From Actinomycetes bacterium (GTDB taxonomy: Bacteria; Actinomycetota; Actinomycetes; S36-B12; UBA10799): DNA of 40,286 bases. Below are positions 2,850 through 36,923 of this stretch, in pieces. The stretch spans positions 1 through 40,286 of the forward strand of contig JBAXOQ010000003.1 in assembly GCA_037133175.1 (NCBI GenBank). The letters run 5' to 3'. A program made the translations under genes and the position numbers. The stretch's first letter is position 1, and each line of letters begins with the position of its first letter. Under the pieces are notes generated by a model. The model did no database searches. It saw nothing but the letters and a program-made list of their open reading frames with translations, and was not told the origin of the DNA.

Positions 2850-4740
2850 CTAGGTCCGGTACGAACGGCTCTTGTAGTAGGCCGTGAAGTTCTCGACCGC
2901 CCGCGCGGACCAGGTGATTATGAGTCTGAGGTGGTAGCCGTAGGTTCGGATGAACACGGCACCGTTCGCCCGGCGGATCACTTTCCAATACCGCAGGTCA
3001 CCGCGCAGCCGTCCGGTGACTGTTAACCGCACGGGCTGACCCGCGTTCGTCACACAGCGGGGCCTTTCGAGTTGGCGAAGCCCGGCCCTTGGGATCGAAC
3101 GCGGAACGATTACACAGTCACCCACCGAACGGGATGTACTGGTTGGTGTACCAGAACGTGCAGTCGTCGACCGGGTCCACCTGCATGGCCGTGTAGTCCC
3201 CCCACCTGGACGGGTCCCCGCCCGGCCCGAACTGCGAGCCGACGCTGGGCAACTCAACCGCGGTCTCCGACTGCATGATTCCCAGCGGGTCGCTCGACAG
3301 GCGCCCGGTGTAGACGATCTCGGGGCTGGTCTGTGCGCTCGACTTGCTGTGGCCCAGAGCCATGTTCTGGTCCCGATGCATCGCGATGGACCCCATCGAC
3401 CGGTAGGACGCATCCGGGGCGTAGGTGCCCTGTTGGAAGACGACGGGCGCGGCGGCACCTGGTGAGCGGATCTCGTACCAGCGCGGCGCAGTCTGACCGT
3501 TGGGATCGGCCGTCGCCGCGATCGACATGTTGGCCGCCAGCGATTCGTGGGTGCCGTAGTTGCGGTAGGCCAACCGGTGCATGACCCTGCCCGAGACCGT
3601 TGCCAGCCGCCGGTCCGTCCGGGCCTGCGGGACGCAGGCCCTGCTTAAGGGGGCGGTGGCGCAGGCATTGGTGAACGCGGCGACCGGCACGGCGAAGGGG
3701 CCAGCGAGATCTGACGCAGAGGGGTCAGCCCAGTCAACGTGGAACCGGTACATGTCCAGTTGGTTCCAGGTCGTCGGGCTTGCCCCCCAGCAGGTAGTTC
3801 GGCGATCCCACCGGTGGTGGCGTCGTGCCGTCGAGATCGGAAGGCAAGAAGCCGATTCCGTCGAAATCGACGCACTGCTGGTTGGCAGGCAGGTTCGCCA
3901 GCATCCGCGATCGAACCAATGCGCAGGTCTTCGTCCCGATGAAGTCCCCGCCGATGTATTCGTACATGTTGTACGTCGCGTAGTAGGCGTCCGGCCACAA
4001 CGCAATCTTCGGATAGTCGTTGAAGTGCTCGTAGGAGTACGCGTACAGAGCGTACGTTCCCAGCGGGTCACTGGTTGTGGACACGGCGATGCACTCGAAG
4101 TTGGGTCCGTGGGACTGGATCGCGAACTGGGAGATGACCCACCGGTCAGCGAGTCCGTCATAGACCACGATTGGGTCGCCGTCGTTGTGCTGCTCGCACA
4201 AGCCCCCGAAACCGGTCCATAGTGTGTTGTTCGGCACCGGGCCGTACAGGACGGTGCCGGCCTTGTCGAAGACGGCCAGGCTGAGATTCACGATCTGGAC
4301 GTAGTGGTTGGGGCCGACGTCCCCGTTCGGGTCCGGCGGCATGGTCCGCATGTTGAACGTGCCCTGCGGTCCGACGAAGCCCTCGCCGAGCCCGGCGGAG
4401 TTCCGGGTGGCGGCGGGCGCTGTGGAGCCGGAAGCCCTTGCACGGGAAGGACCCTGCAAAGCCCCTGGCGCGACCGCGGGGTGGCCCGGTTGCGGTGGCG
4501 GGATCTCGAGGTTGGGTACTTGCCGTTGTCCGGATGCCGATGCGGCCGGGGACATCGAACCTAGGGCCGGCGAGGTGGCGTGGGCGACGGCTTCGGACTC
4601 GGTGGCCTTGCGGTGCGTTGCCTGCGTCGGCGCGGTCGCAGCCGACGTCGGCAGTGTTGTCGAACCCAGAGCTAGAACTAGCGCCACGAACCGATGAGTG
4701 CAGCCCAGCCATGGGGCGGTTTCCAGTCGCGAGCACTCAT
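2850..4740 (-). pseudogene. Secreted uncharacterised protein, paralog A, with basic C-terminal domain; three frame disruptions
   Basis: Homologous ATG at 4740 (MSARDWKPPHGWAALIG); -1 nt at ~4689; +1 G in the C6 run at 3783-3788; frame break or deletion at ~3120 before the C-terminal domain (CVTNAGQPVRL...RTYGY). Pieces lie in ORFs 3734-4771, 3118-4161 and 2850-3458. Confidence 0.8.
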
Positions 4741-9361: not shown

Positions 9362-9435
<74 letters not shown>

Positions 9436-33378: not shown

Positions 33379-34185
33379 GTGGCGAACGGACCCCAAACAC
33401 TGCAGCCGCTGCTCGACCTACCTGGCGTCACTGAATCGGTGGCTTCGGCGCGGGAACGGGTCGATGAACTGTTGTGGGATCGGTCGCTGCGCACCAAGGG
33501 GGTGGCACTGGCCGCGGACGTGTCCCTGCAGTGTGCACGGTCGTCCGCCGCCATCGACGGGATCGACCTGGCGCTGCTGGCTTGGAGCACTGGCTCGGTG
33601 TTCGACGACTCACCGATGGGCCGTACCGCCGCCGGCATTTGGAGGATGGAGTCAGAACTGCGCGCGCTAGTGCCGGTATGGACTTCCGCACCGACGCAAG
33701 CGCTGGCCCGGATGCATTCACTGTTGGCGCTCGAAGTTGTTGCCCAAGATGAACTCGGGCGTCCGCGTACCGGACAGGACGTTGACGACACGCTGCACAT
33801 CAAGGCCGTGCCGGACGTCGGTGCAATGAACTCGCGTCTGGCCGCTTTGACCGACATTGTGGTCGCGGCACCGGTGGTGCCGGCGATTGTTGAAGCCGCC
33901 ATCGTCCACGGGGAGTTGTTGGCGCTGCGGCCGTTTCGTTCGGGCAGTGGCCCGATTGCCCGTGCCGCAATGCGGTTGGTCCTGAGTGCTCGGGGTCTGG
34001 ATCCGGATCTGCTGGTGATGACCGATGTTGCGTTCATGGCCAGCGGGCGGCCCGCTTACGTCGGTGCGATCCGGGGCTATGCAGCAGGGTCGGCCGACGG
34101 CGTGGGTCAGTGGATTCGCTTCTGCGCTCAGTCTGTTGTTGTCGGCGCGAGACTCAGCGGCGACCGCCTGGCAGAACTCGAGTGA
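33379..34185 (+). CDS. Fic-like protein with degenerate motif (Rv3662c-like)
   Basis: HGELLALRPFRSGSGPIAR; conserved synteny. Confidence 0.85.
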   Translation: MANGPQTLQPLLDLPGVTESVASARERVDELLWDRSLRTKGVALAADVSLQCARSSAAIDGIDLALLAWSTGSVFDDSPMGRTAAGIWRMESELRALVPVWTSAPTQALARMHSLLALEVVAQDELGRPRTGQDVDDTLHIKAVPDVGAMNSRLAALTDIVVAAPVVPAIVEAAIVHGELLALRPFRSGSGPIARAAMRLVLSARGLDPDLLVMTDVAFMASGRPAYVGAIRGYAAGSADGVGQWIRFCAQSVVVGARLSGDRLAELE

Positions 34186-34264
34186 CTGTTTCACTGGAAA
34201 GCCGAGACACGCCGGTCTTTTCACCCAGATTGAGCGTGTCGGGTGAATGTTGGGCACGGTCGGC

Positions 34265-34293
34265 TTCCCATCCGATTGGCTCGGGTGTAGAAA
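34265..34293 (+). promoter_or_regulatory. Putative promoter of the Ms1-like RNA
   Basis: TTCCCA-17 nt-TAGAAA. Confidence 0.45.
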
Positions 34294-34299
34294 AGAGCC

Positions 34300-34460
34300 A
34301 TAAGCGGTCGAAGGGCCGTGAACGCCGGACCAGGGACCCACGCGGCGCCTGACCCACGATGAGGGTGAAGGCCCAGTTTCGGGCTCTTTAGGACTGCACG
34401 CTTGATCGCTTGGTCCGGTGTGTCGAGGGACCCCCGCAGCAGCGGGGGTCCCTCTTCTTG
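34300..34460 (+). ncRNA. Ms1-like RNA (RNA polymerase core-binding sRNA), compact
   Basis: Lies at the Ms1 syntenic site between the Fic-like and HAD genes; ACCCACGCGG and GCACGCTTG motifs as I recall them from Ms1; closing stem 34322-34332/34411-34421; terminator follows. Ends are approximate. Confidence 0.7.
34425..34460 (+). terminator. Intrinsic terminator
   Basis: 13-bp stem GAGGGACCCCCGC-AGCA-GCGGGGGTCCCTC followed by a T-rich tail. Confidence 0.85.
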
Positions 34461-34580
34461 TCCGGTCTTCTTCTTCTTCTTGTCCGGTCTTTTTCCTTGG
34501 GCCGCCGTCGGTTGCTGGCCTTCTGGTCGCGGACCCGGTGGCCGTTGAGCCTTTGCTGGTTGTGGCTTGCTGGTTGTGGC

Positions 34581-35363
34581 TTAGTGGTTGTGGCGCAGCC
34601 GGTTTGTGGTGTACCAGGCGATTCCGAGCGCTGCTGCGCCAGCGCTGGCAGCTGCCGCGTAGGACCTGTTGTGGGTGCTTCGTGTGCGCATCGCGACCGG
34701 CTTGCGAAAGTCGAGCACGGGCCACACTCGTTCGCGCGCGAGTTCACGCAGTTCTTTGTCCGGGTTAGTCGGGAACGGGTGTCCAATGGCCTCAAGCATC
34801 GGGAGATCGGTGATCGAATCTGAGTACGCGTAGCACTCGCTGAGGTCGTATCCCTCATCTTCGGCTATGGCGCGAATGGCTTGCGCTTTGCCTGGGCCGT
34901 AGGCGTAGAAGAGAATCTCTCCGGTGTACTTGCCGTCTTCGATGGCGACCTGGGTACCTATCGCTTTGTCCGCTCCGAGCAGCGTGCAGATCGGCTCGAT
35001 TATCTCGGTCCCCGACGATGAGATCACGATGACGTCCCGGCCAGCGTGATGGTGTTCATCGAACAGCGTCAGGGCTTCGGAGTAGACGATCGGTTCGATG
35101 ACGGTGCCGAGCGCGTCGGTGACGATCTCGCGGACGTGTTCGACGTCCCAACCTTTCACCAGATCGGACAGGTAGGCGCGCATCTGCTCCATCTGTTGGT
35201 CGTCCGCTCCCGCCAGCAGGTACATGAACTGGCTGTAGGCGCTCTTGATCAGATCGCCGCGGTTCAACAGGCCTTGTTGGTACAGCGGCTTGGCGTAAGC
35301 CAAGGTGCTCGACTTGGCAAGCAGCGTCTTGTCGAGATCGAAGAAAGCGGCTGCCCTGGTCAT
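34581..35363 (-). CDS. HAD-IB family hydrolase (Rv3661-like)
   Basis: AAFFDLDKT and AYSDSITDLPML motifs, C-terminal TM helix; TAGGAT 7 nt before ATG 35363. Confidence 0.95.
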   Translation of the reverse strand: MTRAAAFFDLDKTLLAKSSTLAYAKPLYQQGLLNRGDLIKSAYSQFMYLLAGADDQQMEQMRAYLSDLVKGWDVEHVREIVTDALGTVIEPIVYSEALTLFDEHHHAGRDVIVISSSGTEIIEPICTLLGADKAIGTQVAIEDGKYTGEILFYAYGPGKAQAIRAIAEDEGYDLSECYAYSDSITDLPMLEAIGHPFPTNPDKELRELARERVWPVLDFRKPVAMRTRSTHNRSYAAAASAGAAALGIAWYTTNRLRHNH

Positions 35364-35526
35364 ACCTTCGATCCTAATTCTCCGTGGCGGTCTGCGACAG
35401 TCCATCGGCTGCGAATCCGGCCGTCCAGGCCTGTGAGTTCGGCTGTAGTCACGCTAGCGGTTTCTTCTTGGGGCTGCTTTGGTGTTTTGTTCGGGTTGCT
35501 TTGGTACTTTGTTCGGGGTGTCAGTG

Positions 35527-35555
35527 TTGCGCCAACATGGGTAGTCATGCATACT
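35527..35555 (+). promoter_or_regulatory. Putative promoter of the 6C RNA
   Basis: TTGCGC-17 nt-CATACT. Confidence 0.55.
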
Positions 35556-35561
35556 GATCTC

Positions 35562-35645
35562 GCTCGGTTTCTTACCGACCGCTCCGACGAATCCCCCCTC
35601 GTCGGACAGAAGCCCCCCGCTCCCCCCAGCGGGGGTCTTCGCTTT
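35562..35645 (+). ncRNA. 6C RNA
   Basis: Two hairpins (35583-35606 and 35609-35640), each with a CCCCCC loop, located between HAD and ssd as in other actinobacteria. Confidence 0.9.
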
Positions 35646-35683
35646 AACCGGTCCGCGTACGTCTTAACCGGGCTGCGTACATC
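35644..35683. repeat. Tandem 20-bp imperfect repeat
   Basis: TTAACCGGTCCGCGTACGTC / TTAACCGGGCTGCGTACATC (17/20 identical). Confidence 0.7.
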
Positions 35684-35689
35684 GTCACG

Positions 35690-35725
35690 ATATCCACAAT
35701 CGGCGAGGGCAAGCAGTTGTCCACA
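35690..35725 (+). promoter_or_regulatory. Pair of DnaA-box-like sites upstream of ssd
   Basis: ATATCCACA at 35690 and perfect TTGTCCACA at 35717. Confidence 0.55.
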
Positions 35726-35756
35726 GGCTCAGTCTGGGGACCATCGCCGTGAGCCG

Positions 35757-36923
35757 ATGACGGGTCAGAGTATGGGTATGAGTGCCGAAACCGCATCGCT
35801 TGCCATCGCTACCGCTGACTGGGGGGCGGGTCCCGTCGGGCCCAGACCGCTGGTCGTCACGGACGACGTCGATCTGCTGGATGATCTACTGCGACTCGTC
35901 GCCGCCGCCCGAGTCGAGGCGGACGCCGCCACGTCTCTCGCCGCAGTTCGAGCTCGCTGGTCCGGCGCGCCGCTAGTGGTCGTTGGGGCTGACACTCTCG
36001 CGCGCCTCGGCGGGGGTCACGTACCTCGACGACCCGGGGTGATTATCGCCACGCGAACTGGCGACGACCAGGGGCTGTGGAAGGACGCCGTCGAACTCGG
36101 AGCCGAGCAGGTGGTCGTGCTGCCCGAGGGCGAGTCGTGGCTGGTGGATCGGCTGGCCGGACTCACCGACGGGCTGGCGCCGGATGCCCCAGTCGTAGCA
36201 GTCATCGGCGGTCGCGGCGGTGCGGGTGCCACCACCTTCGCCGCTGCGATCGCCGTCGCGGCTGCACGGGCGGGCCACCGCGTCAGTGCCGTAGACCTCG
36301 ATCCGATGGGCTCTGGTCTCGACGTGACGTTGGGCAGCGACTGCGCGGACGGACTGCGGTGGGGGGATATCGCCAGGACGAGGGGACGGGTTCCGCCATC
36401 GCTGTTGGCAGATGGGTTGCTGTCCGTCGACGGGGTCCGAGTTCTGACTTGGTCGCCAGGACCGTGCGAGGTTCTGTGGCCCGGTGCTGCTGGCGCTGCC
36501 ATTGACGCGCTGCGGCGTGTCAGCGACGTTGTGGTCGTCGATCTGCCCAGGACGCCATCGGACTCGGTTGGCGAGGCTATCTGCCGGGCAACTCGAGTCC
36601 TGGTCGTTGTTCCCAAAGACACCCACTCGCTGTCGGCGAGTGCTCGGTTGGTGACCTCGCCGGTGTTGGTCGGTGCGGAGTTGCGGCTGGTCACCCGAGG
36701 TCCGTCTCCAGCAGGGTTGAGCGCGTCTGAGATTGCGCAGGTGCTCTGTATTCCGGTGTTGGCTGACATTCGCTAGGAGCAGTCGCTGGGTCGCAACCTG
36801 GAGATGGGGTTGGCCCCGGGGGATGGCCGACGCAGTCCGCTGAGCAGGGCAGGCCGAATGGTGCTAGCTGAGTTAGGGGTCGGATCCGGTGGCGTAACTG
36901 GTGATCGTGGGCGGGCCGCATGA
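35757..36923 (+). pseudogene. ssd: Septum site-determining protein Ssd (CpaE/TadZ-like) with in-frame TAG at 36774-36776
   Basis: Receiver-like N-terminus and deviant P-loop GGRGGAGATT; the frame continues 48 Ssd-like codons past the TAG to a TGA overlapping the tadA ATG. Start 35757-35778. Confidence 0.8.

Follow-up and report, generated by a model that had tools for sequence, protein, structure and literature searches.

The window, the 40,286-nt stretch of actinomycete DNA analysed here, contains a conserved, structured small RNA gene on its + strand, with a predicted transcript spanning positions 34300–34462. Its product is probably a compact RNA of the Ms1/scr3559 family, whose members in Mycobacterium and Streptomyces are abundant sRNAs that associate with the RNA polymerase core lacking the primary sigma factor (PMC9130861; PMC11077062). 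The window RNA extends a known family to a new lineage, in a form that is both compact and flipped.

Architecture of the RNA and its locus

The RNA gene lies in a 395-nt gap (34186–34580) with convergent Fic-type (+) and HAD (−) genes at its ends (Table 1). The Fic-type assignment is based on a match to Pfam Fic (PF02661; E 4.6e-4, 21.4 bits) that falls below the 24-bit cut-off. Orthologues of the HAD gene, at 50–78% identity, adjoin the RNA in relatives. The phrases 'HAD hydrolase', 'Fic' and 'CpaE' describe Ms1 synteny in Tables 1–3 of PMC9130861, and the HAD/Fic-flanked intergenic position that marks the wide Ms1 family is found in the window. On the far side of the HAD gene the window carries a 6C-like RNA and a ParA/CpaE-like gene, as does the mycobacterial locus. 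The 6C-like element (35582–35644, +) is upstream of HAD and divergent from it; it scores 41.8 bits with RF01066 (E 0.0086; the gathering score of 47 is not reached), and 6C at the same relative place in Mycobacterium ostraviense (L083) scores 89.4 bits. A mechanical ORF (35046–36776) would pass through this element, so the ParA/CpaE-like gene probably has a later start. A tRNA gene (9362–9435, −; 66.4 bits) is the only Rfam match in the window that exceeds its gathering score, and three more PF12710 HAD genes (110–121 bits) are present on genome contigs C553, C149 and C482.

Table 1. Features of the RNA locus, in order along the window
Feature	Position	Strand	Remarks
Fic-domain protein gene	33379..34185	+	5' neighbour, co-directional with the RNA; orthologue adjoins the RNA in relatives
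Inverted repeat GACACGC...GCGTGTC	34206..34240		Upstream of the promoter-like boxes; from sequence
−35-like box TTCCCA	34265..34270	+	17 nt upstream of TAGAAA
−10-like box TAGAAA	34288..34293	+	Kept as TA(G/C)A(A/C)A across families
Predicted sRNA, probable Ms1-family member	34300..34462	+	~163 nt; R1 match 34290–34463, 140.9 bits
P1, small 5' hairpin GCGGUC/GGCCGU	34304..34319	+	16 nt; predicted folds
Closing stem, 5' half CGCCGGACCAGG	34323..34334	+	Pairs with 34409–34420
Invariant 5' core strand ACCCACGCGGCGCC	34336..34349	+	Same in 10/10 family sequences
P3 hairpin ACCC-ACGAUGA-GGGU	34352..34366	+	Fold; equivalent small hairpin in the Rfam Ms1 structure
P4, short apical hairpin GGCCC/GGGCU	34368..34388	+	Fold; place of the ~100-nt mycobacterial expansion
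Invariant 3' core strand GCACGCUUGAUC	34397..34408	+	Family alignment, Rfam Ms1 comparison
Closing stem, 3' half CUUGGUCCGGUG	34409..34420	+	Repeat finder and folds
Intrinsic terminator, 13-bp GC-rich hairpin and UUCUUGUC	34425..34462	+	Terminator search; covarying pairs
HAD-IB hydrolase gene	34581..35405	−	3' neighbour, convergent with the RNA; Pfam HAD PF12710, 7.6e-36

The predicted RNA has a 6S-like fold, with a long closing stem around a conserved central region, and the structure line of the Rfam Ms1 model pairs alike. The closing stem comprises 12 bp; it appears in both folds and was detected by the repeat finder as inverted repeat I10 (11 nt, 91% complementary). At the position of P1, relatives carry hairpins with other sequences. 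The terminator hairpin (34425–34454) is followed by TTCTTGT, and the T-rich tail is present on the + strand only. The fold of 34300–34462 on the + strand has an energy of −90.8 kcal/mol (z −5.5; none of 200 shuffles folds as well), which is 10.6 kcal/mol better than its reverse complement (−80.2 kcal/mol, z −4.57). The promoter-like boxes, Ms1-type motifs, closing stem and terminator that the preliminary description had read on the + strand are all present there.

A generic sigma-70 promoter scan of the locus returned 0 sites, and the boxes are unlike the sigma-70 consensus; the promoter reading is based on comparative evidence instead. In many families a G-TA(G/C)A(A/C)A box lies in front of the homologous RNA, with a −35-like hexamer 17–18 nt upstream that takes the form CTTCCn, TTCCCA, TTGGCA (genus g9) or ATGACA (g8) in relatives. 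The same type of box is found whichever way the RNA is oriented, and also at the relocated g10 locus described below. In Streptomyces natalensis (L124) the box is TACAAA, followed after 6 nt by AACGGCCCGCGAG, which PMC9130861 gives as the RACE-mapped 5' end of S. coelicolor Ms1; L124 contains the first 13 bases of the printed scr3559 sequence. The box-to-start spacing of this S. natalensis homologue places the 5' end of the window RNA at A34300, and the terminator tail supplies the 3' end, so that the length of ~163 nt is a prediction. A longer transcript starting ~45 nt further upstream, suggested by the alignment of the covariance model R1 (below) to Streptomyces, was rejected because the true box homologue sits at the Streptomyces start and the internal alignment of R1 there is spurious.

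Several short repeats accompany the gene. In the window, and at loci L014, L036–L043, L046–L072 and L154–L163, which represent several families, either the GACACGC...GCGTGTC repeat or a GACACGCC motif is found ~50–95 nt upstream of the Ms1-type promoter; the GACACGCC motif occurs upstream of the RNA promoter at g6, g10, f22 and f48 loci also. This element travels with the RNA gene on flipping or relocation, and could be an operator or an insulating hairpin. In genus g166 of family f48 (L154–L163), a palindrome, GACAAGGG-N6-8-CCCTTGTC, is positioned immediately upstream of the RNA promoter, and its 3' arm provides the −35-like TTGTCC. On the other side of the window RNA, two 21-nt units TCTTCTTGTCCGGTCTTCTTC (34453–34495) come directly after the terminator and three tandem 14-nt units TTGCTGGTTGTGGC (34553–34594) span the 3' end of the HAD coding sequence. 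CCGGTCTTTT is present at 34212–34221 too.

Relationship to Ms1-family RNAs

Comparison by BLAST with 41 related genomes found the core in 10, the window's own genome counted, and the 10 aligned sequences display invariant blocks together with variable hairpins that carry compensating changes. R1 was built from alignment A2, which comprises the window and 9 relatives. In the window's family (f1), R1 detects one copy of the RNA in 35 of 39 genomes, one of these having two. No match was obtained with stricter filters in 127 genomes from other families of the same order, whereas a class-wide sample of 149 good-quality genomes gave matches in 44 (including G185, a genome flagged unpublished). In a 64-row alignment (A3), whose fitting to the model is a bias favouring the structure, 94.8% of cells pair, compared with 76.2% in shuffles and 29–55% when partners are slid. 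Both sides have changed in 18 of the 26 pairs, including all 6 modelled pairs of helices 1–2 in the closing stem and 9 of the 10 terminator pairs. The most conserved helix, at the centre, is without variation in A3, and covariation says nothing about it.

The Rfam Ms1 model does not score the window RNA. RF02566 (304 positions, gathering score 162 bits) returned no row at E≤10 over window positions 33800–34900 (1.1 kb) and none at E≤0.01 over L018; genome-wide, its sole match has 14.6 bits and lies on another contig. The positive control, M. ostraviense (L083, 2944–3243), was recovered at 241.6 bits. The model also misses S. natalensis (L124), which indicates that it is specific to mycobacteria; RNA polymerase association has been shown experimentally for the Streptomyces Ms1 homologue (PMC9130861).

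R1, built from the window's family only, bridges these groups. It matches M. ostraviense L083 at 2978–3245 (+; E 1.9e-6 in 364 kb), which coincides in position and strand with the RF02566 match. Eight other loci give weaker matches in the corresponding position (+, 2917–3245, just downstream of HAD): L111 (M. asiaticum), two Mycobacterium sp. MAG loci (L092 and L086), two Mycolicibacterium loci (L094 and L088) and three Actinomycetota MAG loci (L100, L105 and L102). Many Streptomyces loci are matched as well, S. natalensis L124 over the full length of the model (1–173; E 5.1e-6). In the alignment of R1 to M. ostraviense, the closing stem, the small hairpin, the terminator and the two invariant strands are all collinear, and 104 nt are inserted in the apical hairpin. 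The RACE-verified S. coelicolor Ms1/scr3559 sequence given by Vankova Hausnerova et al. 2022 (supplement of PMC9130861) contains the same motifs in the same order as the window RNA.

The window RNA, mycobacterial Ms1 and the Streptomyces loci have in common HAD/Fic synteny, a closing stem that covaries and the two strands ACCCACGCGG and GCACGCUUG. The ACCCACGCGGCGCC strand is shared with both the Rfam Ms1 consensus and the printed scr3559 sequence, and ACCCACGCGGCGCC and GCACGCUUGAUC are the counterparts of the Rfam consensus strands CCGGcACCCaCGCGGAG and GCACGCUuGGUagCCGG. The similarity to experimentally defined Ms1 RNAs is therefore collinear in both sequence and structure. Together with the R1 matches, the shared strands, stem and synteny place the window RNA in the Ms1 family despite the blank Rfam Ms1 model. 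The Ms1 identity proposed in the preliminary description is thus supported by matches to an Rfam-confirmed Ms1 and to Streptomyces loci; the covariance search that it suggested gives nothing at the locus with RF02566, but the family-built model matches a genuine Ms1. Sub-threshold Rfam matches to other families (BjrC68 at 29 bits against a gathering score of 39; BSnc120, RsmY and others) were set aside as hairpin resemblance only.

Like mycobacterial Ms1 (M. smegmatis Ms1, MTS2823, RF02566), the window RNA has two core strands, a closing stem, small and apical hairpins and a terminator, and occupies the gap between HAD-IB and Fic-like genes. It differs in size (~163 nt against a 304-position model), in its 5' hairpin (16 nt rather than 63 nt), in its apical arm (~20 nt rather than ~95 nt) and in being encoded on the strand opposite to HAD. 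The scr3559/Str13 RNA of S. coelicolor (PMC9130861; PMC11077062) resembles it in the order of the core motifs, in HAD/Fic-type synteny and in the type of promoter box, TACAAA there and TAGAAA in the window, 6 nt before the start. Unlike the window RNA, scr3559 is 228 nt long, its apical part is longer and it has an extra ~45-nt 5' hairpin region; HAD flanks it on the 5' side, and all scored Streptomyces loci are co-directional with HAD.

Two other classes of RNA polymerase-associated RNA invite comparison. 6S RNA (RF00013), the shortest known example of which is ~160 nt (PMC9130861), is likewise an abundant, structured RNA polymerase-binding rod with a closing stem and a conserved central region, but it binds the holoenzyme with the primary sigma factor and not the core. 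The 6S model has no match in the window, nor in the 94.5%-complete genome at E≤0.01; as a control, it matched 6S in 5 of 14 known genomes. The CoRP RNA of Corynebacterium glutamicum, a small-genome actinobacterium without Ms1, is also abundant and RNA polymerase-associated (PMC11077062). By its description there, it is set apart as another RNA class, one that binds core and holoenzyme alike.

The nearest named records are assemblies of uncultured organisms, several designated Candidatus Nanopelagicales bacterium and others Micrococcales or Actinomycetales. The name Nanopelagicales is absent from the accessible text of PMC9130861. Family f1 keeps the RNA in genomes of 1.9–3.7 Mb, which qualifies the trend described in that paper, in which Ms1 is lost below ~3 Mb. 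Other families of the order (L077, L093, L095, L112 and other named loci) have no R1 match between HAD and Fic; their HAD–Fic gap is ~30–150 nt, as measured from match ends, or is occupied by another gene. This absence looks like lineage-specific loss of Ms1.

Orientation and size across the family

The window RNA is on the + strand and HAD on the − strand, so that the co-directionality with HAD that characterizes the wide Ms1 family is absent. We determined orientation by mapping HAD and Fic with tblastn on every fetched locus and comparing strands. Within f1, the RNA is convergent with HAD and co-directional with Fic at 16 of 23 orientable loci. The 16 flipped loci represent six of the ten f1 genera (g1, which includes the window, g3, g5, g6, g7 and g9), and the canonical arrangement is found in g8 (6 loci) and g2 (1 locus). 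In the remaining genus, g10, the RNA is elsewhere at the 9 loci examined (L034, L036–L043): it is not between HAD and Fic but follows an ABC1-kinase gene. One g10 genome, G050, carries two copies 374 nt apart (L034, 1127–1263 and 1501–1675).

Outside f1, the canonical direction predominates. Among 28 class-level loci, the RNA is co-directional with HAD wherever HAD was found (20/20) and opposite to Fic wherever Fic was found (27/27). A single search of named genomes with the HAD protein gave 80 named loci, all set with HAD on the + strand. Of the 37 with an R1 match at E<0.01, 36 are co-directional with HAD and one, in Nocardioides flavescens (L115), is flipped; the named and other genome sets may overlap in genomes. 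The second family surveyed, f48, is Nocardioides-type (151 genomes), and named Nocardioides loci group with it in the tree described below. R1 matches 92 f48 genomes at E≤0.001. The RNA is co-directional with and downstream of HAD in 82 (median gap 90 nt), flipped in 7 (all 5 matched g161 genomes, 1 of g170 and 1 of 11 in g166) and located 2.3–3.9 kb from HAD in 3; these numbers become 79, 7 and 3 of 89 without G324, G336 and G338, which are flagged unpublished and all co-directional.

These distributions point to repeated changes of orientation. A quick IQ-TREE search on concatenated HAD and Fic proteins (42 rows) gave a tree in which f1 is grouped with support of 98, and canonical g8 lies inside a group with g1, g3, g5, g6 and g7 (support 100) that is sister to g9. 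When the 15 flipped f1 rows are constrained to form one group, the tree becomes 90.5 log-likelihood units worse (AU p 1.6e-5), for a group chosen after the tree was seen and a tree that describes the flanking genes. Rejection of the constrained group implies at least two orientation events within f1. The g170 and g161 RNAs are nearly identical, and f48 accordingly needs at least two events. Comparison of G446 with its congeners reveals what was reversed, namely the whole gap, with upstream palindrome, promoter, RNA and terminator, and its junctions are near the two stop codons. No convincing flanking inverted repeats that could drive the flip were found in the window or at the junctions between G446 and canonical congeners. 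We also considered whether weak inverted matches in the flanks (I1 and I12 of the repeat finder) are a relic of an older canonical copy; this was rejected because R1 with filters off finds nothing there and 315 of 500 and 429 of 500 shuffles align as well.

The reading of an inversion relative to canonical synteny is therefore correct, the window being the reverse of Mycobacterium, Streptomyces and most other actinomycetes. The flip is not special: it is common to six of the ten f1 genera and arose independently in f48 (7/92) and N. flavescens. The survey of relatives thus upholds the canonical direction as predominant, but flips recur in f1 and f48. The accessible text of PMC9130861 holds no statement on Ms1 inversion or orientation ('inverted' and 'same strand' do not occur, and 'orientation' appears once, in a figure legend), and a wider literature search yielded nothing more on Ms1 orientation; the 824-species list in Supplementary Table 2 of that paper may record strands or lengths. 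A 2026 bioRxiv preprint searched for the synteny in both genomic orientations, assuming gaps of at least 250 nt.

The window RNA falls outside the ~230–300 nt range of the studied family members, at a predicted ~163 nt between its predicted ends. R1 matches span 167–193 nt at HAD-linked f1 loci, 164–199 nt among 27 full-length class-level matches (one partial match is 151 nt) and 169–206 nt in f48 (median 188 nt). These spans count ~10 nt of promoter, and in Streptomyces, f44 and Mycobacterium the true start is further upstream than the R1 match. A compact form of ~155–190 nt appears to be the common state outside Mycobacterium and Streptomyces. The long forms are outliers, at ~270–300 nt in Mycobacterium and 228 nt in Streptomyces, and these are the two that have been studied experimentally. 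The RNA of g10 is still smaller: in L038 it extends from ~1512 to ~1634, ~123 nt, with an 11-bp closing stem that leads directly to UUACUUCUUUGU and doubles as terminator. The preliminary description of a half-size RNA defining the minimal core is accordingly accurate in that ~163 nt is about half of the 304-position model, but the size is not special, spans of 164–206 nt being the rule elsewhere, and the window RNA is not the smallest version available, that of the sister genus g10 being smaller.

Functional interpretation and significance

We propose that the locus is a self-contained cassette, in which the upstream element and a non-consensus promoter precede the RNA and an intrinsic terminator closes it. 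The RNA retains the family plan, with a closing stem, an invariant internal helix or bubble formed by ACCCACGCGGCG and GCACGCUUG, a small hairpin and an apical one; both the apical part and the 5' domain are reduced to minimal hairpins. On this reading the whole intergenic cassette has been reversed in place in this lineage, leaving the RNA co-directional with Fic and convergent with HAD. The transcript ends and expression are predicted from sequence. From its homology to Ms1 and scr3559, the window RNA may bind the RNA polymerase core, sequestering or stabilizing it in non-growing cells; polymerase binding has been shown only for the 228-nt and ~300-nt RNAs, and published searches assume at least ~227 nt. 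We regard it as possible, but doubtful, that the core-binding module consists of four elements only (the closing stem, the ACCCACGCGGCG/GCACGCUUG helix and two minimal hairpins) and that position, not co-transcription with HAD, is selected.

The loss of about half of the molecule raises the question of whether this Ms1 descendant still binds RNA polymerase, or instead acts as a base-pairing regulator or protein sponge. Mycobacterial Ms1 has a long 5' domain and a ~100-nt apical arm that are missing from the window RNA, and the published view is that an RNA below ~150–160 nt is too short for 6S or Ms1 function (PMC9130861; PMC11077062). The parts that are retained, however, are exactly those invariant from Mycobacterium to the window, the RNA is kept as one copy per genome in nearly all f1 genomes, and no 6S substitute was found in the window's 94.5%-complete genome. 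We consider a loss of polymerase binding unlikely on these grounds.

It is quite improbable that the flipped RNA is, rather than an independent gene, a 3' UTR of the Fic mRNA that is cut out by processing. Such an origin would agree with the co-directionality of RNA and Fic in the window and with the Fic frame of g9, which, as read, extends to a TAG directly before TAGAAA. It accounts poorly for the occurrence of the same promoter boxes in both orientations and at the relocated g10 locus, for the homologous Streptomyces box at a mapped start, and for the 114 nt and hairpin that separate the Fic stop from the predicted RNA start in the window.

A functional RNA on the − strand, in the canonical direction, is very improbable. 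The helices are present in the reverse complement too, which folds well (z −4.57), but it is the + strand that carries the promoter box, the T-rich tail and the invariant motifs, which are asymmetric, and R1 with filters off detects on the − strand only the palindromic terminator (14.0 bits) and a −0.3-bit match (E 1.3). The + strand reading of the preliminary description holds on this evidence and on the better + strand fold. That the region is no RNA gene at all, but a short ORF or a mere stretch of terminators and protein-binding DNA where two genes converge, can be dismissed almost entirely: the best Rfam match is terminator-like (BjrC68) and mechanical ORFs overlap the region, but the stems show compensatory changes, single strands are invariant, the element is conserved at a different locus in g10, and it is homologous to experimentally detected RNAs.

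The reading of the window RNA as a compact, flipped Ms1 RNA bears on the family in several ways. Our literature search found no structure of Ms1 bound to RNA polymerase that would show which part of the 230–300-nt RNAs makes the contact. The natural 163-nt and ~123-nt versions keep only the invariant core and are ready minimal constructs for binding and structural work. Published homologue searches drop intergenic regions under 250–300 nt (PMC9130861; 2026 bioRxiv preprint) and would miss compact forms, so that the loss of Ms1 in small genomes may be overstated. The recurrent flips indicate that Ms1 expression is independent of read-through from HAD, and the linkage to HAD needs another explanation. 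Compactness, flips and linkage do not alter the kind of molecule, which is an Ms1-family RNA. The ~163-nt and ~123-nt forms lie well below the ~227 nt or more assumed by published searches, and, on the doubtful reading of a four-element module, repeated in-place flips without loss of the HAD–Fic address would mean that selection keeps the position of the cassette.
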